A stretch of 64,000 bases of DNA from contig NC_135807.1 in NCBI RefSeq assembly GCF_964213995.1, positions 66,340,001 to 66,404,000 on the forward strand. The letters run 5' to 3'. Position numbers and translations under genes: made by a program. Of the stretch, positions 3,268 through 61,628 are shown piece by piece (the stretch's first letter is position 1; every line of letters begins with the position of its first letter). The DNA comes from Mustelus asterias. Taxonomy: Eukaryota. The notes under the pieces are model-generated. The model saw only the letters and a program-made list of their open reading frames with translations, did no database searches and was not told where the DNA came from.

Positions 3268-3657
3268 ATTGTCTTCAGTCCCCACCACAAACTCTGTACC
3301 CTCGCCATGGATTCTATTCCACTACCACAGCTATCTGAGGCTGTGCAAAATTCTACAAAACAATAGCACTTTATTGGACTCTGAGATGAGTTTCTGACCA
3401 CATATCCATTTCATCACCAAGACTACCTATTTCCACCACCATAACATTGCCCAACTCCACCCGCCTACGTTCACCAGCTGCTAAAACTCTCAACCATGCT
3501 TTTGCTTCCTCTAGACTTGACTTCTTCATTGTATTTCTGGCTAGTCATATATCCTCCCCTCTCCATAAACTTGAGCCCATCTAAAACATTGCTGTCTAAA
3601 TCCTAACACACACCATGTCTCATTCACCCATCATGTCTGTGATAGCTGACCTACATC

Positions 3658-3811
3658 TTTAAAGTTTAAAGTTTATAGTTTATTTATTAGTGTCACAAGT
3701 AGGCTTACATTAACACTGCAATGAAGTTACTATGAAAATCCCCTTGTCACCATACTCCAGCGCCTGTTCGGGTACACTGAGGGAGAATTTAGCATGGCCA
3801 ATGCACCTAAC
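3658..3811 (-). mobile_element. V-SINE 3' fragment (tail type B)
   Basis: The reverse complement reads GTTAGGTGCATTGGCCATGCTAAATT..AACAGGCGCTGGAG..CAGTGTTAATGTAAGCCTACTTGTGACACTAATAAA followed by an (ACTTTAA)n-like tail. Confidence 0.8.
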
Positions 3812-4602
3812 ATCGGCTCCTGATCCAGAAGCACTGCATTTCTGAAATTCTCATCCATGTTTTCAAATCCCTCCACGGCCCCATTGTATGAGCTCCTCCA
3901 CTCTTGTGTCCCTCCAATCTGACTTCCTGCATGTCCCCAGTTTTAATTGTTCTGCAGCTGTTTCTTCAGTTGCCTGGGGCCTTAGTTCTGGAATTACTTC
4001 CTCAGACATCTCCACCTCTCTCCCATTCTTTTATCCTCAAATAAACTCCTCAAAACCTGCCACGTTGACCAAGCTTTGGTCATCAAATATTTTGTTAATT
4101 GTTCGGTGTGCAGTTTTTAGCGATGATGCTCATGTGAAGTACGTTGGGATGTTTTACTGTGTTAAAGGTGCTATACAAAAAATTCTTGTTGTAATGCCTT
4201 TTAAGCTTGCAGAGGATCACAATGAATGTTCAGTTCACATTATTAAGGCAACCTATTTATTTGCTTTTTAAATAGTGCATAGATTTTCCAGGTGGCTTGT
4301 TAAAAAAGGGGCTCCAACTCCTATATTTCCAAATAAATTCAGAAGTTGAAAACATGCTGCCTCAGTTTATTTTCTTTCTACAAATTCCACTAGATCCAAC
4401 CAGTATTAGTCTCATGAGCAAGAAGTTCAGAGTTCCTAATGAACAATCTCTTTATAGATTTGTTTAATTATAGATCGACGTCTTTGTAGTGTTTGTAGTG
4501 TACATAAATATCGACACAGCCATACCACAGGTAGAGATGAAATTGAACAAGATACTTAGAGTGAAAGTTATCAAGCGTGTACAACTGATAACATGAGATC
4601 AC

Positions 4603-4840
4603 GGAGGGAGTTGAAAACATGGATGAGAATTTTAGAAATGCAGATCTTCTGGATCAGGAGTTGATGTTAGGTGCATTGGCCATGCTAAGTTCTCCCTCAG
4701 TGTACCTGAACAGATGCCAGAGTGTGGCGACGAGGGGATTTTTGCAGTAACTTCATTGCAGTGTCAATATAAGCATACTTGTGACACTAGTAAATAAACT
4801 ATAAACTTTAAACTTTAAATATGTAAGTCAGCAATCACAG
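4603..4840 (-). repeat. Inverted duplicate of 3637-3874 (L2 plus nested SINE composite)
   Basis: The reverse complement matches 3637-3874 across both SINE/L2 junctions. Confidence 0.9.
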
Positions 4841-5914
4841 TATTTAAAGGCTATGGCTTTTATTGCTGCCCTTTGTGGCAAATAATTTCACTATTAAGGG
4901 ACAGCAAATGAAGCACATCGTAATATGTACATTCAATAGATGAAGCATTTCAGCACATATAAAACATTGTCTGTATTAAATCACTGAGATGCCATAATCA
5001 ATGGAGATTGAAATTCTGAAGAATAATATTCATGTATATTTGTTCATTTGTGTAAAATCATGCAATAGGCATTCACTAATTTATTTAAATTGTTATCAAG
5101 TTTTTAAAATCATGAATATCAGAATTTTGCACAGTACACTAAAAATAGCACTTGATGAACACGTTGAAGTTTGATTCGCCCATTTCACTTTTGAAGATAA
5201 ATTTGAGTGAATTGTTGTTGACATGCCCTAATGATGGATAAGGACTCGTGTTAAATTTTCTTCTCATTTTACTGGTGGATTATATTTGATTCTTAACTTA
5301 AAAAGTACTGTATATCTGTTGCACTGCAATGGCTTTGTATCCTTTTATGATGTATCAAAAAAGTGCCATTTACATTGTCTGCAATGGCCTTGATTTGTCG
5401 TTATTATGGAATTTGTATTCTTAGTCCCCTGGGAGTGCTAACTCCATGTGATACCTTTGTGTTTTGTGATTATAAAATCTCAATCTGGCATTTATGAGCA
5501 TATAAATAATACTGTGCTGAAAGGGGTGTAAAAACTCTGAACTCTGGAGATTTGACAATAGATGCAGAGTTTATACAAACATGTTCTATGAGTCTCCTTT
5601 CCAGGGAGTGTTCATGGCTGAAGATACTCTGTCTCCTCTCTCAGCCCATTTTGATTAATAAAAGGCAGTTTTGTTAGCAAATGGAAATTACTGTGATTCT
5701 CAGTCGTTACAGCTGCCAACCTTTATATAGCTATTAATGGTCCCTGTTGGCTGTACTGAGGACAATAACAAATTATACGGCAATGTAAACAATGAGAAAA
5801 GCAGTGCAACCAGATTCAGAAAGATTTAAGTCTTTTTGTTAGCTGGGCCAGTAAGTACAATTTATAAATGGACGCTAAGAATGACAAGATGAGTATGTGT
5901 TGAATAGAACAGTC

Positions 5915-6612
5915 TGTGCGCAATCGGGGTCCTGACCTTCTGGTTGCTTGCCATTTTAATACACGATCCTGCTCCCATGCCCACATGTCTGCCCTTGGCT
6001 TGCTGCAATGTTCCAGTGAAGCTCAACACAAACTGGAGGAACAACATCTCATCTTCTGGCTAGGCACTTTACAACCTTCCGGTCTCAACATTGAATTCAA
6101 CAACTTCAGATGATTAGCTCCACCCCACCTCAACCCTTTGTTTTCATTCTATTTTATTTAATTTTTTACTGTTCTCTACCTTTTATTTCTTTATTGTCTT
6201 TCTTCATTTTTCTTCCCACTCTTTCCCCCTATTTTCCACCCCTTCCCTTACCTTCCCCCCTTTTGCTTCTCCTTTTCTAAATCTTACCTCTGTCCCATCC
6301 ATTTTCCTCCTCCCTCCCCCAACATCTTCATTTTAGCTTCTCTGCTGTTTGGCCATTTACACCCTTTATTCTCTATGTGGACAGCTATTAACTGGTTTCC
6401 CTGGCTTCTGTGGCTATGACTCATCTTTCATTCCCTCACCCTGCAGTATAAATATCTCCCACTTTCTATGTCTTTTAGCTTTGACAAAGGGTCACCTGGA
6501 CTCGAAACATCAGCTCTTTTCTCTCCTTACAGATGCTGCCAGACCTGCTGAGATTTTCCAGCATTTTCTCTTTTGGTTTCAGATTCCAGAATCCGCAGTA
6601 ATTTGCTTTATC
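5915..6612 (+). mobile_element. Penelope-like element, 5'-truncated (GIY-YIG C-terminus, 3' UTR, pLTR)
   Basis: ORF 5916-6113 (VACHFNTRSCSHAHMSALGLLQC..KLEEQHLIFWLGTLQPSGLNIEF) matches the PLE endonuclease C-terminal pattern. 10-bp TSD TAGAACAGTC at 5905-5914 and 6613-6622. Confidence 0.9.
6477..6515 (+). ncRNA. Minimal hammerhead ribozyme, U3-A8 core variant
   Basis: AGCT-TTGACAA-A-GGGTC-ACCTG-GACTC-GAAA-CA-TC-AGCT. Stem I is AGCT/AGCT and stem II is GGGTC/GACTC; loop III has lost its palindrome in this copy (ACAT). Confidence 0.65.
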
Positions 6613-9454: not shown

Positions 9455-9692
9455 AGAATAAAAGCAAATTACTGCAGATACTGGAATCTGAAATCAAAAG
9501 AGAAAATGCTGGAAAATCTCAGCAGGTCTGGCAGCATCTGTAAGGAGAGAAAAGAGCTGCCGTTTCAAGTCTAGATGACTCTTTGTCAAAGCTTTGACAA
9601 ACATCATCTGGACTCAATGTCAGCTTTTTTCTCTCCTTACAGATGCTGTCAGACCTGCTGAGATTTTCCAGTGTTTTCTCTTTTGGTTTCAG
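9455..9692. mobile_element. Palindromic (head-to-head) PLE pLTR-end insertion
   Basis: Arms of ~100 bp about the axis 9591/9592, both homologous to 6477-6612. 15-bp direct repeat TTCAGTGTTAAATTA at 9440-9454 and 9688-9702. Confidence 0.9.
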
Positions 9693-9789
9693 TGTTAAAT
9701 TACTTCTCAAGTGGCTTCTCAACAACTTTCAAACCTGCTGCAGCCAGAAGGATTCCTTTTTCACCTTCAACCTGTCCCAGGGAAAGCCA

Positions 9790-9889
9790 TGATGTGGAGA
9801 TGCCGGCGTTGGACTGGGGTAAACACAGTAAGAAGTTTAACAACACCAGGTTAAAGTCCAACAGGTTTATTTGGTAGCAAAAGCCACAC
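9790..9889 (-). mobile_element. PLE pLTR 3' fragment (family 2)
   Basis: Matches 61234-61297 and 29809-29907 in reverse orientation. TSD AAAGCCA at 9783-9789 and 9890-9896. Confidence 0.85.
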
Positions 9890-10599
9890 AAAGCCAGCAG
9901 AGGGTGGGATCCCATCAGCCTCTTAACCCATATAATTCCTGGGACTTTCCCACCTTGTTCACCCTTAAACTCATCGCCAACAGCTTGGGAAAAGTCCCCC
10001 GAGAACTTGGTCTCCAAATAAATGGTCACTGTTCAGATTTGCCTATAATTTGGTTATGGATTGTACAAATAAAAAAATTCTAAAAAGGCCAACGGCAACT
10101 GTTCACTGTTTAACTTTTTACTTGAGTTCAAGTTAATCTTTGTCCTTGTTTTGAGGAGACTGTTTCCAATTGCTGGTGAGACATTGGAAAAAGTTTCACT
10201 TCATTTGTGAGATTTTTCTATATGTTCAGTGATGTTCATTTATTTGTAAGAAGCCACTTTCAATAGCAAAATCACTCAAAGAATTTTGTGCATAAATAAG
10301 GCGTAATAGCTGGCAGCCAGAATAACTGTTCGATGGTGCAGTTATATGTTTGGGAGTCCAAATAGTAGATTTTCAAGTTTTGAATTCACACATTTGTTCC
10401 AATGCCAGTGTCTCTGGCTTTAGGTTAGATTATTATTTCACTAAAGAGACAACTATTGCAAACCTACTAAAAACTCCAAGTTCTGGTCTTTGTCACATTA
10501 GAATGGAAGGGACAGAAATGTAAAGATTCATTTGATTAATTAGTTTTTAGTCTGTAATGTGATACGATGCATTCACACATTTAATACCAACAGACAACT

Positions 10600-21822: not shown

Positions 21823-22574
21823 AACACAAACTTGGGGTGAAATGTTTATCATCTCTTGATTTACTTCACATTTACTCTTTTTAATGTTGGTGGAGCTCTG
21901 CATCAGAGAAATGGCCCTCAGCTTAGTTTCTCAGTTTAATAAAGGCATATTTATCACATGTGCCATTTTGTATTTTCATTAAAACATTTATCAGATTTAG
22001 AAGTTGCCCCCAAAACTGACGAGATCAGAGTTTGATCTAAAATCGATAAAACATCCTTGGATGCAGATGATATACAATGACCATATTTATTTCAGACCCG
22101 GAAAACTTGGTTAAACATTTGGGAGAGTATTGGGATATCATATCAATTGGATGTCGTTCAAGGTTATTCTTTTGTCTAAAACTTACATACCCAGGGGCTG
22201 GAGGAAGCTGTGCTACGCTGGTTTGAAAGAGGCATAACTTACCTCACTGATTATTGTCAGATAAATATGTTGTTTGGGGCCGTTTTTAAATTACAGGCTC
22301 AAATAATGATTTCCATCAATTCAATCCCCTATCTTGTCATTCTTGTCTACAGCAAGTTAATATAGCTGAAACACTGTGGCAGTGAAATTGTGACATTTGA
22401 CTTCAAGCTGAAAATCAACAAAGATTGAGTAATTACAACTTGGGTGATATATCACCTTTGCAACCTTCATGCAGCTAAGAAAAAAAGCAATAGGTGGAAT
22501 TTTCTCATTTCTTTGCAGAGTAGCACAGCGGGTGGAAAACAGGGATGGAAGCTGCTGACACCAATGTTGGCTTC

Positions 22575-24164
22575 CTTAAAGAAAGAGATTGTGCTGGAAT
22601 CTTTGAATGGCATCAAGATAGATAAGTCACCGGGTCCAGATAGGATGTACCCCAGGTTACAGTGGGAGGCGAGGGAAGAGATTGCAGAGCCTCTGGTGAT
22701 GATCTTTGTGTCGTCGATGGAGACGGGAGAGGTGCCGGAGGATTGGAGGATTGCGGATGTGGTTCCTATTTTCAAGAAGGGGAATAGGGATAGCCCAGGA
22801 AATTACCGACCGGTGAGTCTAACCTCAGTGGTTGGTAAGCTGATGGAGAAGATCCTGAGGGACAGGATTTATGAGCATTTAGAGAGGTTTAGTATGCTCA
22901 AGAATACTCAGCACGGCTTTGTCAAAGGCAGATTGTGCCTTACAAGCCTGGTGGAGTTCTTCGAAAATGTGACTAAACACATTGATGAAGGGAAAGCGGT
23001 AGATGTGGTTTATATGGATTTTAGCAAGGCTTTCGATAAGGTCCCCCATGCAAGGCTTCTAGAAAAAGTGAGAGGGCATGGGATCCAAGGGGCTGCTGCC
23101 CTGTGGATCCAGAACTGGCTTGCCCAAAGGAGGCAGAGATGGGTCTTTTTCGAAATGGAGGTCGGTCACCAGTGGTGTGCCCCAGGGATCCGTTCTGGGA
23201 CCTTTGCTGAGTGTCATTTTCATAAATGACCTGGATGAGGAAGTGGAGGGACGGGATGGTAGGTTTGCCGACGACACGAAGGTTGGTGGGGTTGTGGATA
23301 GTCTGGAGGGATGTCAGAAGTTACAGAGGGACATAGATAGGATGCAAGACTGGGTGGAGAAGTGGCAGATGGACTTCAACCCAGATAAATGCGTAGTGGT
23401 CCATTTTGACAGGTCAAATGGGATGAAGGAGTACAATATAAAGGGAAAGACTCTTAGTACTGTAGAGGATCAGAAGGACCTTGGGGTCCGGGTCCATAGG
23501 ACTCTAAAATCGACCCCGCAGGTGGAGGAGGTGGTTAAGAAGGCGTATGGTGTGCTGGCCTTTATCAATCAAGGGATTGAGTTTAGGAGTCTGAGGATAA
23601 TGATGCAGCTATATAAGACCCTCGTCAGACCCCACTTGGAGTACTGTGCTCAGTTCTGGTCACCTCATTACAGGAAGGATGTGGAAATGATTGAAGGGGT
23701 GCAGAGGAGATTTACAAGAATGTTGTCTGGATTGAGTGGCATGCCTTATGAGGATAGGCTGAGGGAGCTCGGTCTTTTCTCCTTGGAGAGACGTAGGATG
23801 AGAGGAGGCCTAATAGAGGTATATAAAATGTTGAGAGGCATAGATTGGGTGGACTCTCAGAGGCTTTTTCCCAGGGTGGAAATGGCTGCTATGAGAGGAC
23901 ACAGGTTTAAGGTGCTGGGGGGTAGGTACAGGGGAAATGTTCAGGGGAAGGTTTTCACACAGAGGGTGGTGGGCGAGTGGAATCGGCTGCCGTCAGTGGT
24001 GGTGGAGGCAAACTCAATAGGGTCTTTTAAGAGACTCCTGGATGAGTACATGGGACTTAATAGGATGGAGGGTTATAGGTAGGCCTAAAAGGTAGGGATA
24101 TGTTCGGCACAAATTGTGGGGCCGAAGGGCCTGTTTGTGCTGTAGTTTTTCTATGTTTCTATGT
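22575..24164 (+). mobile_element. Young CR1 LINE, 5'-truncated (RT domain, one frameshift)
   Basis: ORFs 22444-23229 and 23078-24082 ([47 protein letters not shown]), a (TTTCTATG)n tail and TTCCT at both flanks. Confidence 0.97.
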
Positions 24165-29685: not shown

Positions 29686-29907
29686 ACAGTAAGAAGTCTC
29701 ACAACACCAGGTTAAAGTCCAACAGGTTTATTTGGTAGCAAATACCATAAGCTTTTGGAGCGCTGCCCCTTCGTCAGATGGAGAGGAGGGGCAGCGCTCC
29801 GAAAGCTTATGGTATTTGCTACCAAATAAACCTGTTGGACTTTAATCTGGTGTTGTGAGACTTCTTACTGTGCTTACCCCAGTCCAACGCTGGCATCTCC
29901 ACATCAT
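29686..29907. mobile_element. Inverted-repeat PLE pLTR insertion (family 2) with HHR remnants
   Basis: 85-bp arms at 29686-29770 and 29787-29871 with 2 mismatches. 10-bp direct repeat CTTTCAATTA at 29677-29686 and 29917-29926. Confidence 0.92.
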
Positions 29908-29994
29908 GACTATCATCTTTCAATTAGCCAGGTATAGCTTGCTTTTTTAGAAGTCAATGCTATTTGTTTCAAACTGAGCAACTTGACCCACAAG

Positions 29995-35745: not shown

Positions 35746-36636
35746 TAGATATATAAAAGAGGCAGGTGTGCAGGCTTTTACCCCAGATAATAGGCCTTTT
35801 TTAGTCCAAGATGGGTTGTTTCAAAAATACTGCTCCTGTAGCCAAGGGTGTGATGCAGGCTTTACAAGAGATACTGACTATATCTACATTTTATTTTGGG
35901 AGCAAGAGTAAATTTGCTGTTTGGTGTACATGCAATTGATGGTATTCTTGAATATTCTGTTTTCGTTTTTGGAGGTTACATATGTGGATTAAACATAAAC
36001 CGTAAGGCCCAGATTTCCTTGCCTCCATCCATGTCGGAACAGAGGACGGGATTTAAAAATGGCGGACAGGACCCAATTTTAGAATTCCCACCCCTATTCC
36101 TGGTGAGTCGAATTTTTACTGTCATGGGAAAAGACAGCGGGCAGCAAGCCTGTGCTCAGCAATCCTGCCCTTGCCTATTCCACTGCAGGAGTGGTTATTT
36201 TAGATGCCCACTATATTCATGGAATTGGGGCAGTTATGTTAGTTCATGGCCATGCAGAGGAGTTGTGACCCAAGGGGGAACTCCAGCCCAAAGTGAGGAA
36301 TCCATAAAAATTGATTTTTATGGAATTCTTTTGTTAGGTTTCGAAATCTAAAAAAAACCCCTACCTTCAGTTTTAACATTTAGATACTGTATTGTAAATT
36401 AGATATGATGGAGGTGATATGGGTGACATGGAGGTAACATGTGAAATATGAGAGGATCTGAGGTATATGGCGTAGGCGAAGGGTCTGAGGGGGTAAGGAG
36501 TTTGAGGCCTTGGCATTCATAATTAAAGCTGGTCCAATGTCCCAGTATGTCGAATCTGGTGTTTTAACATGCCTCCATTACCACCAGGTTGTTGGTGATC
36601 TGGACACCTAAAAGCTTGAAGCTCTCGACCCTTTCT

Positions 36637-38494
36637 AGGAGTCATGAGAAGGCCTTGGCAAGTAGAATTAAGGAAAACCCTAAGGCGTTCTATAAATATG
36701 TGAAGAGTAAAAGGATGAGACGTGAAGGAATAGGGCCTATAAAAGATGAAGGCAGGAAAATCAGTACGGAACCAGTAGAAATGGCAGAGGTGCTTAATGA
36801 GTATTTTGCCTCGGTTTTCACAGAGGAGAAGGACATGGGTGGATGTACTGTGGGCTTGCGGTGGACTGAAAAGATTGAGTATGTGGACTTTAAGAAAGAG
36901 GTTGTGCTGGAATCTTTGAATGGCATCAAGATAGATAAGTCGCTGGGTCCGGATGGGATGTACCCCAGGTTACTGTGGGAGACGAGGGAAGAGATTGCGG
37001 AGCCTCTGGTGATGATATTTGTGTCGTCTATGGAGACGGGAGAGGTGCCGGAGGATTGGAGGATTGCGGATGTGGTTCCTATTTTCAAGAAGGGGAATAG
37101 GGATAGCCCAGGAAATTACCGACCGGTGAGTCTAACCTCAGTGGTTGGTAAGCTGATGGAGAAGATCCTGAGGGACAAGATTTATGAGCATTTAGAGAGG
37201 TTTAGTATGCTCAAGAATACTCAGCATGGCTTTGTCAAAGGCAGATCGTGCCTTACGAGCCTGGTGGAGTTCTTCGAAAATGTGACTAAACACATTGACG
37301 AAGGGAAAGCGGTAGATGTGGTTTATATGGATTTTAGCAAGGCGTTCGATAAGGTCCCCGATGCAAGGCTTCTAGAAAAAGTGAGAGGGCATGGGATCCA
37401 AGGGGCTGCTGCCCTGTGGATCCAGAACTGGCTTGCCCAAAGGAGGCAGAGAGTGGGTATAGATGGGTCTTTTTCTAATTGGAGGTCGGTCACCAGTGGT
37501 GTGCCCCAGGGATCTGTTCTGGGACCCTTGCTGTTTGTCATTTTCATAAATGTCCTGGATGAGGAAGTGGAGGGATGGGTTGGTAAGTTTGCCGACGACA
37601 CGAAGGTTGGTGGGGTTGTGGATAGTCTGGAGGGATGTCAGAAGTTACAGAGGGACATAGATAGGATGCAAGACTGGGCGGAGAAGTGACAGATGGACTT
37701 CAACCCAGATAAATGCGTAGTGGGCCATTGTGGCAGGTCGAATGGGATGAAGGAGTACAATATAAAAGGAAAGACTCTTAGTACGGTAGAGGATCAGAAG
37801 GACCTTGGGATCCGGGTCCATAGGACTCTAAAATTGGCCCCGCAGGTGGAGGAGGTGGTTAAGAAGGCGTATGGTGTGCTGGCCTTTATCAATCGAGGGA
37901 TTGAGTTTAGGAGTCCGGGGATAATGATGCAGGTATATAAGACCCTCGTCAGACCCCACTTGGAGTACTGTGCTCAGTTCTGATCGCCTCATTACAGGAA
38001 GGATGTGGAAAAGATTGAAAGGGTGCAGAGACGTTTTACAAGGATGTTGCCTGGATTGAGTGGCATGCCTTATGAGGATAGGCTGAGGGAGCTCGGTCTT
38101 TTCTCCTTGGAGAGACGTAGGATGAGAGGAGACCTAATAGAGGTATATAAAATGTTGAGAGGCATAGATCGGGTGGACTCTCAGAGGCTTTTTCCCAGGG
38201 TGGAAATGGCTGCTACGAGAGGACACAGGTTTAAGGTGCTGGGGGGTAGGTACAGGGGAAATGTTAGGGGGAAGTTTTTTCACACAGAGGGTGGTGGGCG
38301 AGTGGAATCGGCTGCCGTCAGTGGTGGTGGAGGCAAACTCGATAGGGTCTTTTAAGAGACTCCTGGATGAGTACATGGGACTTAATAGGATGGAGGGTTA
38401 TAGGTAGGCCTAAAAGGTAGGGATATGTTTGGCACAACTTGTGGGGCCGAAGGGCCTGTTTTGTGCTGTAGTTTTCTATGTTTCTATGTTTCTA
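36637..38494 (+). mobile_element. Young CR1 LINE, 5'-truncated ORF2
   Basis: The 366-aa ORF 36589-37689 continues past two TGG>TGA stops (37687, 37981). Nearly identical to 22575-24164, with a (TTTCTATG)n tail. Confidence 0.97.
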
Positions 38495-40872: not shown

Positions 40873-41361
40873 ATAGAAAGAAGAAAGAACTTGCACTTGT
40901 ACAAATAATCTTTACATCCTCAGGGCACTCCAAAGCCAGTGATTTATTCTGAAATCCATTGTTGAAATACTAATCAAATGAAATCAAAAATTAGTACCGG
41001 CTCCTTACTGCAAGAAAGTAATACTTTACTTAATTCAGATGGTCAATGGCACTCACCATTCACTATGCTGCCAGCTACCCACAGGTTTTAGCAGGCTTTT
41101 CAGCAGACTTTTCAGCAGACACTTGCTGTCATCGAGTGTCGAATACAGTGCAGTTCCCCTTGCAGGGGATCTGAAGCATATGCTAACAGGAAAGCAACTT
41201 TGTGGCTGTTCAACCAGATTGAAGACATGCTGAGACATGCAGAAAGAGAATTCCTTTGGCACTCGGCACATTTGCCTCATTGCCCGGAGACCGGCAGTAT
41301 TATGGATTGTACAACAAAAACAGAAAATGCTGAAAATCTCAGGATCTATGGAGAAAGAATA

Positions 41362-41402
41362 GAGCCAACGTTTCGAGTCTGGATGACCCTTCGTCAGAGC
41401 CC
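41362..41402 (-). ncRNA. Minimal hammerhead ribozyme with intact core, within a ~92-bp PLE insertion (41311-41402)
   Basis: Minus strand reads GGGCT-CTGACGA-A-GGGTC-ATCCA-GACTC-GAAA-CG-TT-GGCTC, with a palindromic ACGT loop III. 12-bp TSD ATTATGGATTGT at 41299-41310 and 41406-41417. Confidence 0.8.
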
Positions 41403-48184: not shown

Positions 48185-48680
48185 GATGTAATTCCACAAT
48201 TGAACAGCTCTTGTTAAACAGCCCTGATTGCGTTAAAAATTAGATTGATAACCAATTTTAGATCATCAGCCAGGCTTGCAGTGTGGTTTAGAAGGAGCAT
48301 TCCCCAGGCAATGCTTTGATCAATCAGTCGATCTGCCTGGTTTGAATTTAAACAGAAGCTTGGCAGTTAACTGTTTGCTTATGCATTCTCCATGGCAGTG
48401 CCTCTACCAATCAGAGTCCAGTTGCTACCCAATCAGCACATCCTACTCATGCTGTATAAACTGTTCTTCCCTTTAAAATTGATATTCTGGTGAATCTGTC
48501 CTGATGAGTGCAAGATGAAAAGCTTCAATAGCATAGGCAGGAATTTACGACCTCGTTCGTTCCAAAACCGTAAAATCCCGGCCGAAGTCAATGGACCTTT
48601 CTATGGTCCGTCCCTCGCCCACTCCGATTCCCGTGGCGGGCAGGGTGGTAAAATTCCAGCCCATATCTCTTTTTTTCAGC
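48185..48680 (+). mobile_element. Old PLE (family 3) remnant with HHR at 48497-48530 and a MITE at 48536-48662
   Basis: Hand translation RCNSTIEQLLLNSPDCVKN*IDNQF*IISQA resembles a GIY-YIG C-terminus. HHR-like TGTC-CTGATGA-GTGCAAGAT-GAAA-AGCTTC. MITE TSD ATA. Confidence 0.65.
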
Positions 48681-58614: not shown

Positions 58615-59455
58615 GCATGACCTAAAGCTTCCATTGGTCTGTTATTTTAATTCTCCACCTTGCTCCCTTTCTGACCTCTCTGTCCTCGACTTTCTAAACT
58701 ATTCCATGAAACTCAATTTAAACTCCCGATGCAGCACCTTATCTTTCAGAGAAATAATTTATCTTCTGTACTCAACATTGAGTTCAATAATTGCAGACCG
58801 TAAACCCTGCCTCCCTTTTGTTTCTTTTTCCTTTGTTGGTTTTTTTTCACTTTTGTTCTGATTTCAGACAATAGCTGTTCATCATTCTGCCAACTTCTCC
58901 TCATCTCGACCAATCTTTTGTTTCTTTACTTGTCTCACTACCACATTCTTTGGCCAGGAATTCTCAACCCCGCCACGGCAGGACTGCTGTGGGCAACGTG
59001 GTATGGGCCAGCCAAAAGTCCATTGACTTTCAGCAGGATTGGATGATCCGGGCGGTGGGCAGGGCAAAATATCCTGCCCGAAGAGTTCACACTCTGAATA
59101 TTTTTGTCACTCAATCTCTCATGTCAACCCTATTGCGGATCTTCCCTTTTGTACTTCCCACCCTCTTTCCTCACATACTTAAAACCTGTACATCTCTAAC
59201 TTTTCCCAGTTCTGATGAAATGTCATCAGCCTGAAAAGTTAACTCTGGCTGAAACTCTTCCGTCTCACCCACTGTGGGAATCGTAGCCAGAAAATTTGGC
59301 AGACCATTTAAAGGTCTGTCTATCTCGGGTGGGAATTTCTGGTCTTGGGGCGCATGTGGCCAGAGAATCCCACCCTCTATCTCTCTCCACGATTATTGCC
59401 AGACTTGCTGAATATTTCCAGCATTTCCGATTTCCAGCATCTGCACTATTTTGCT
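58615..59455 (+). mobile_element. Old PLE remnant with HHR (59208-59244) and two MITEs (58952-59079, 59247-59375)
   Basis: Decayed homology to 5915-6612 (CTCAACATTGAGTTCAATAA; TTTCCAGCATT). HHR reads AGTT-CTGATGA..GAAA-AG-TT-AACT. Confidence 0.7.
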
Positions 59456-61072: not shown

Positions 61073-61297
61073 CACGCAAAACTCACGTTGTTTTGTTTCT
61101 TAAAGACTTGATTAGTTGTAAGTATTCGCATTCCAACCATTATTCATGTAAATTGAGTTTGTGTCTTTATATGCTCTGTTTGTGAACAGAATTCCCACTC
61201 ACCTGAAGAAGGGGCTTGGAGCTCCGAAAGCTTGTGTGGCTTTTGCTACCAAATAAACCTGTTGGACTTTAACCTGGTGTTGTTAAACTTCTGACTG
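61073..61297 (+). mobile_element. PLE family-2 pLTR segment
   Basis: 13-bp TSD TGAATCCCAATCT at 61060-61072 and 61298-61310. Contains a TATA-like TTTATAT and an HHR. Confidence 0.88.
61200..61236 (+). ncRNA. Minimal hammerhead ribozyme with intact core
   Basis: CAC-CTGAAGA-A-GGGGC-TTGGA-GCTCC-GAAA-GC-TT-GTG, with a palindromic AGCT loop III. Predicted cleavage at 61233/61234. Confidence 0.82.
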
Positions 61298-61460: not shown

Positions 61461-61570
61461 ATCTGTTTCTTCAGAGCCCCATTCTTTGACCTCTTTCATC
61501 AATCTCCCTCACTCAATCATTCCTTCAACTACATTCCTGTCACTCCCTCCCCTGGTCTCCAGTTCACTGT

Positions 61571-61628
61571 AAGAGTTTTAACAACGCCAGGTTAAAGTCC
61601 AACAGGTTTATTTGGTAGCAAATACCAT
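61571..61628 (-). mobile_element. 58-bp PLE family-2 fragment
   Basis: 13-bp TSD TCCAGTTCACTGT at 61558-61570 and 61629-61641. Matches the pLTR sequence immediately downstream of the HHR. Confidence 0.88.

Follow-up and report, generated by a model that had tools for sequence, protein, structure and literature searches.

Many short copies of a Penelope-like element in Mustelus asterias start on base 1 of their hammerhead ribozyme, 30 nt downstream of a TATA box

Penelope-like elements and other features of the window

The window, a 64,000-nt stretch of the M. asterias genome (NC_135807.1, positions 66,340,001 to 66,404,000), contains four elements that are pLTRs of Penelope-like elements (PLEs) bearing minimal hammerhead ribozymes. 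They are referred to below, after their ribozyme cores, as families A (6481), B (61203), C (48501) and D (59212); the coordinates of the features are collected in Table 1. The genome-wide counts refer to the 3.68-Gb genome, family B being followed by pattern matches and in 100 fixed-position 10-kb stretches, as its tail words were too common for a DNA search.

Table 1. Features of PLE copies and hammerhead ribozymes in the window.
Position	Strand	Feature	Remarks
5912..6609	+	Family A 5'-truncated PLE copy (ORF end, 3' UTR/pLTR, ribozyme, tail)	Extent from 29 related loci
5913..6113	+	Last 66 codons of family A endonuclease region, then stop	Agrees with translations of longer relatives
6447..6452	+	TATA box, family A	
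6477	+	Principal 5' boundary among family A copies; putative +1	First base of stem I; TATA+30
6477..6515	+	Minimal type I hammerhead, family A	Core 6481; predicted cut between 6511 and 6512
6575..6609	+	Pair of 3' ends in family A, one at about 6575-6579 and one at 6609	Tail is optional; RT likely starts at these sites
9461..9692	.	Head-to-head family A stubs	Both from +1 (9590, 9593) on shared AGCT
9782..9891	-	Family B fragment	Starts at most 2 nt from predicted cut
29686..29915	.	Head-to-head family B stubs	Minus arm from about +2 (29783)
41311..41400	-	Subfamily A2 stub	From about +2; 12-nt target duplication 41299-41310/41406-41417
48300..48533	+	Family C pLTR	CCAAT 48407 and 48429; TATAAA 48455; core 48501; predicted cut between 48526 and 48527
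59179..59245	+	Family D, relative of A	TTAAAA 59179; predicted +1 59208; core 59212; tail restarts near 59382 after insertion
61073..61297	+	Family B pLTR copy	TTTATAT 61166; putative +1 A61197; core 61203; predicted cut between 61233 and 61234
61566..61628	-	Family B fragment	Predicted cut forms its 5' end, with an ambiguity of one base; flanked by a 12-nt target duplication

In longer relatives of family A, motifs of RT and of GIY-YIG type were recognised by eye and a Cys linker was seen; Pfam gave no match for family A. The linker, observed in family A, is a candidate Neptune-clade feature, a Zn-finger-like Cys linker between RT and EN being named for that clade (PMC8557442). A family B relative (L097) contains, 476 nt upstream of the core, a GIY-YIG domain detected by Pfam with E=1.8e-4, slightly below the curated cut-off, and the family C loci have in common a GIY-YIG-like segment about 300 nt upstream, the 60 aa of which had no Pfam match (three of the four ORF fragments submitted to Pfam had none). 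The organisation of EN+ PLEs, with RT followed by a C-terminal GIY-YIG upstream of the pLTR, was found here, as were a pLTR with an optional tail of 30-40 nt, an inverted upstream copy and target duplications. For family A neither a full-length element nor the junction between pLTR and ORF was found. A copy of family B, situated on the minus strand of L160 near 4517, continues for 13 codons beyond the tail from an ATG at the tail end, which suggests a candidate ORF start about 130 nt downstream of +1. A non-LTR retrozyme, defined by tandem hammerhead units without an ORF (10.64898/2026.07.22.740005), was considered and rejected: the copies are scattered, either singly or in head-to-head pairs, and they run on from the ends of PLE ORFs.

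At least three of the families had been described as otherwise dissimilar in the reading made from the letters of the window alone (hereafter the sequence-only reading). A, B and C are indeed independent, while D has its 3' part in common with A, so that the independent families number three, not four.

The family A core at 6481, UUGACAA, is of the U3-A8 variant already described in PMC4209133, and all 79 parsed family A copies have a core of this variant. Along with the core boxes, the motifs possess stems I and II, the bulged base, the palindromic stem III and NUH of the minimal type I hammerhead. Pairing was found in 0.75-1.00 of the cells for stem I and, for stem II, in 0.96-1.00 of those in A1 and B and 0.73 in D, with compensatory differences between subfamilies; in family C stem II comprises 2 bp only and the parse of stem I is offset by one base. 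The predicted cut falls 35 nt (A) or 37 nt (B) downstream of the 5' boundary described below, and as a consequence of the fold cutting would strip a capped segment of this length from the RNA. Scanning of the window with Rfam gave no hammerhead match, as is expected for minimal motifs, and hairpin matches only, located on inverted pairs. Published minimal motifs cleave weakly, as dimers or with protein (PMC4209133, PMC11167929).

Several other features were noted in the window. In the family C pLTR (48300-48460) a unit is repeated internally and as many as three CCAAT boxes precede TATA, an arrangement resembling an LTR-U3 promoter. Another short repeat interrupts the D (59246-59381) and C (48534-48663) copies directly after the ribozyme. 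Past the ribozyme, families A, D and B have strong runs resembling 3' splice sites (pyrimidine tract plus CAG; 6513-6535, 6566-6583, and 29862-29884 in the B tail); in A such a run stands directly ahead of an ATG, the first 3' end of the copies lies just upstream of one run, and a leader intron is possible. Two CR1/L2-like LINE copies with RT reading frames (22429-24082 and 36568-38355) are 94-98% identical, and an inverted repeat at 3637-4840, with 256-nt arms that are 87% complementary and separated by 692 nt, is possibly a non-autonomous DNA transposon.

TATA motifs upstream of the ribozymes

The TATA-like motifs that the sequence-only reading had paired with the four cores are all present, at distances from motif to core of 34 (A), 37 (B), 46 (C) and 33 nt (D). 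Estimated from 1.0 Mb of fixed-position genome samples, TATAWA would start by chance within any one 6-nt slot with a probability of 0.0044, which rises to 0.011 when the two weaker words are admitted. Their recurrence is family-wide in A and C, while B is variable and D has only TTAAAA. Each position of the family A TATAAA is kept in 26-29 of 29 copies, which were chosen to cover the motif, and the genome has 2,446 exact 25-mer matches that include it. In family C, TATAAA is the family majority, downstream of both CCAAT boxes, and is exact in 29 of 70 old copies; the family D majority is TTAAAA (13 of the 27 scored), not a TATA consensus. Most subfamilies of B have TTTATAT or TATATAT 29-33 nt before A61197, and the CCAT subfamily carries TCTGTGC or TCTGTATG in its place. 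The latter is highly abundant (at least 47,481 exact tail matches) and counts against a start model based on TATA, though its start site may differ. A TATA motif about 30 nt before a pyrimidine-purine start was found in A and A2 (30 nt) and in B (29-33 nt).

A common 5' boundary in family A and subfamily A2

Copies of family A were collected in two ways. With a query confined to sequence past the cut (30 loci out of 40 listed, reduced to 29 by removal of the window copy), 17 of the 29 start within -1..+2 of A6477 and one starts near the cut. Among 50 copies selected by the core, taken in genome order with one listed partner skipped, 30 start within the same interval, starts later than +2 being impossible in this set. 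Genome-wide, 5,796 exact matches begin from 6479, 4,995 include G6478 and 4,221 include A6477, and about 1,770 keep T6476 (extrapolated from 61 of 100 listed matches, counted by hand). In subfamily A2, for which a single, noisier reference copy was used, 18 of 29 starts fall within -5..+3 and two near the cut; its spacer is likewise 30 nt long despite a sequence different from that of A. Within the window, the short copies that had been said to begin just upstream of stem I do so, those at 9590/9593 at +1 and those at 41402 and 29781 (the latter of family B) at about +2. Older subfamilies related to A (L165, L093, L067) have other stem II sequences and apparently start near stem I as well.

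Thousands of short family A copies thus share one start base, and the RNA of the element likely starts there. The boundary is a new, well-supported genomic signature of family A, within a known class of elements and with a known ribozyme.

The boundary in families B, C and D

The signal was weaker in family B, for which 85 tail-anchored copies were obtained from 1.0 Mb of fixed-position samples and the window. Forty-four of them start upstream, two in -19..-7, 12 at -6..+3, 17 inside the ribozyme, four at the cut and six downstream of it. The base before A61197 is the consensus C in 63,721 of 69,978 matches and another base in 6,257 (about 9%); among the first 100 listed of the latter, counted by hand, it is G in 75, against 29% expected, and the corresponding hand counts at positions neighbouring the boundary are 19 and about 32 of 100. 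TG is enriched before the boundary; after its exclusion 1,828 matches with the extra G remain, about five times the number predicted from the A count. An untemplated G at the 5' end is a signature of cap copying, and the extra G at 61197 is what such copying would give. Forty G-bearing loci (the first listed, with three skipped) were inspected: the G continues an inverted arm in eight, stands in unrelated flank in about 11 and is a point change in one, the rest being situated near inverted pieces. Origin of the G from a subfamily was rejected, as all eight local G copies have unrelated upstream sequence and one of the 40 continues. No extra G precedes +1 in family A at 6476 (G in 39 and C in 61 of 100 listed) or at 6477 (about 42 G, 42 T and 16 C among those listed), an early hint of GG in five of seven family A copies having disappeared in larger genome tallies, and it is absent from family D (about 31 of 100 listed).

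Family C, the one in which "TATA+30" and "stem I" could be told apart, showed no 5' peak: among the first 70 of 1,116 ribozyme-selected copies, 57 reach past the TATA, three start near TATA+30 and five near stem I. In this family the promoter is present, the stubs are absent and the start-site reading is unsupported. The proposal that the pLTR transcript starts at the ribozyme finds indirect support in the sharp TATA+30 boundary of A and A2, weaker support in B and none in C. Trans cleavage at +1 was ruled out by inspection, there being no NUH at this place in B and D.

Read on the minus strand, the family B start region (61197-61205) is CAGGTGAGT, which makes a perfect splice donor, while the TATA-like word becomes ATATAAA; the very abundant B copies could act as antisense splice donors.

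Ends, flanks and alternative origins of the boundary

The 3' ends of family A fall mainly at two places, 23 of 85 at 6575-6579 and 44 of 85 at 6609, i.e., 100 and 133 nt downstream of the boundary; none of the 85 lies at the cut. Family B also has two 3' ends, 36 nt apart. In family A stubs without an inverted piece, 17 of 34 share at least 8 nt between their flanks, compared with 25 of 1,122 mismatched pairs, which indicates that the flanks are duplicated target DNA. Target duplications of 13 nt likewise enclose the head-to-head pair at 9461-9692 (9442-9454/9690-9702) and the family B copy at 61073-61297 (61060-61072/61298-61310). An inverted piece lies upstream of 37 of 71 short family A copies and of 2 of 14 long ones.

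The frequency of inverted pieces invites another explanation, in which the boundary is a hot spot of DNA joining or fold-back at a palindrome, with an RNA start farther upstream and a distance from TATA that is coincidental. A short palindrome does lie at the boundary (AGCT in A, GTGA-C-TCAC in B). Palindromic junctions within the window, the TG enrichment ahead of the B boundary and the presence in C of a TATA without a peak are in line with this, and palindromes at inverted junctions with self-priming on an antisense template were proposed in PMC3846280. However, the identical AGCT at 6512 is not accompanied by a boundary (302 of 11,624 matches break there), simple stubs with target duplications share the same start base, the 30-nt spacing is kept across diverged spacers and the extra G of family B remains without TG. 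Considering these facts, we regard a hot spot as unlikely.

In a second explanation, the pyrimidine run and AG before stem I would act as a 3' splice site, the situation found in Penelope of Drosophila, with the start upstream. TTTTAG does stand at this place in family A, D combines TTTTCCCAG with CTAAC, which resembles a branch point, helix I is where the intron of D. virilis terminates (PMC4209133), and 27% of exact family A matches lack A6477. The AG is nevertheless kept in 73%, the upstream flanks are duplicated target DNA rather than exons, and the B boundary has no AG; splicing is accordingly an improbable source of the boundary.

The cleaved class of copies

If the RNA started at the ribozyme and the latter cleaved itself efficiently, two comparable classes of inserts, uncleaved and cleaved, and a bimodal distribution of 5' ends would result, as the sequence-only reading had predicted. 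The second class was not found in family A and amounts to at most about 5% in B. Of 11,624 matches at the family A cut, 11,322 have the consensus base and the remaining 302 (2.6%) deviate, mostly through C-to-T changes, i.e., transitions, which largely refutes the prediction for this family. One B subfamily has 2,739 of 50,220 matches (5.5%) broken within two bases of the cut, and two fragments of the window (Table 1) as well as one sampled inverted pair begin at the cut; on the other side, 74 of the 100 listed breaks, counted by hand, keep A at position 17, and the four of 85 sampled starts at the cut compare with about three expected from neighbouring truncations. A cut-starting class in B may therefore reach about 5%, showing no excess over neighbouring truncation, and two comparable classes are very improbable.

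A putative route from capped RNA to stub

The beginning of most short family A copies at hammerhead base 1, TATA+30, is rather likely, in our view, to reflect an RNA polymerase II start combined with run-off of the RT from the uncut RNA end, a reading that covers A and, more weakly, B. The sequence of events could be as follows. The 3' pLTR of one copy would serve as the upstream promoter for the next, and TATA-driven RNA polymerase II would start at stem I. The RT would then be primed on nicked DNA at either of two internal RNA sites. Priming in the leader would bring it to the RNA end after 100-135 nt, leaving a promoter-less stub, the leader cDNA 3' end being joined to the target, often by microhomology, or folding back into an inverted pair; priming in the downstream pLTR would yield long, TATA-bearing copies. 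Cutting of the leader would remove the capped 35-37 nt, and cutting of the 3' pLTR would separate the ORF from the RT start sites. Cut RNA, uncapped or parted from these sites, should hence give few copies, which fits the absence of ends at the cut. The ribozyme is probably an off-switch for the RNA and not a step of its maturation before insertion.

A bolder version, which we offer tentatively, treats the vertebrate PLE hammerhead as a protein-gated self-decapping switch. A capped RNA driven by TATA would have the hammerhead as its first 35-37 nt, the RT would copy the cap in family B, and the strong-stop-like cDNA would end as a stub, as an inverted pLTR or in a template jump that rebuilds the pLTR. 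Minus-strand strong-stop DNA of LTR elements is a short cDNA that begins internally and reaches the capped 5' end, with a tRNA as primer; the stubs described here differ in being, as envisaged, target-primed and integrated, without a tRNA primer. Should self-decapping be true, one sense-strand mechanism would explain both the inverted ends of PLEs and the retention of the ribozyme.

Provided that stem I is where the RNA starts and that cleaved RNA remains uncopied, the ribozyme does not make the template's 5' end. A large class of 100-135 nt repeats would then be leader copies, start sites could be read from genomes alone, and the role of the hammerhead could be pursued in tests of translation, RNA stability and insertion with wild-type versus dead ribozymes.

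Comparison with known systems

The role of hammerheads in PLEs has been described as unclear (PMC8557442). In a search of the main texts of freely accessible papers, we found no report of a start at a PLE ribozyme, nor of strong-stop-like stubs from PLEs; the part of 10.64898/2026.07.22.740005 covered by it does not mention TATA or a promoter.

The families resemble the EN+ PLEs described in PMC4209133 in the pLTR, the minimal type I hammerhead with a bulged A before stem II, the palindromic stem III, the U3-A8 variant and the many dispersed single motifs. Cleavage was proposed in that work to serve precursor processing or circle formation, whereas the copies studied here neither start nor end at the cut, and the ribozyme lies at the inferred 5' end of the RNA.

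The promoter invites comparison with two elements. In Penelope of Drosophila virilis it is TATA-less and internal, with the start at 371 and an intron (416-491) ending at helix I (PMC2377424). As is envisaged for our families, it lies within the pLTR and is supplied by tandem copies; unlike in them, where the TATA is upstream and the start probably at stem I, the D. virilis ribozyme is situated about 120 nt inside the RNA (PMC2377424). This is the sole mapped EN+ animal promoter that we found in the literature, and its lack of a TATA counts against the TATA-start reading. The pLTR of Pen2a from Adineta vaga has a putative TATA plus Inr, presented in the text considered as a single untested motif, and an antisense template was favoured (PMC3846280); a TATA in a PLE pLTR is as such already published. 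Pen2a is similar to the present elements in this TATA and in its inverted pLTRs with palindromic junctions, and differs from them in that, in the same text, the TATA is unconnected to the ribozyme or to copy ends (PMC3846280).

The closest parallel for the 3' ends is PAc (Poseidon, Anolis), the RT of which starts internally at two sites defining the tail, in correspondence to the two 3' ends and optional tail seen here (PMC11167929). In that study the RT worked in vitro chiefly on RNA that was uncleaved, with no reads at the cut, and cutting by the ribozyme needed protein (PMC11167929). The PAc ORF starts inside the ribozyme, in contrast to the ATG at the tail end suggested by the family B copy L160.

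Finally, in the plant retrozyme NbRZ1 a hammerhead placed after an LTR promoter cuts off the capped 5' part, so that the RNA can no longer be translated (PMC12029980). NbRZ1 is a non-autonomous plant LTR element in which, unlike what is envisaged for the PLEs of M. asterias, cutting serves circle formation, but it provides a demonstrated precedent for a hammerhead acting as an off-switch (PMC12029980).
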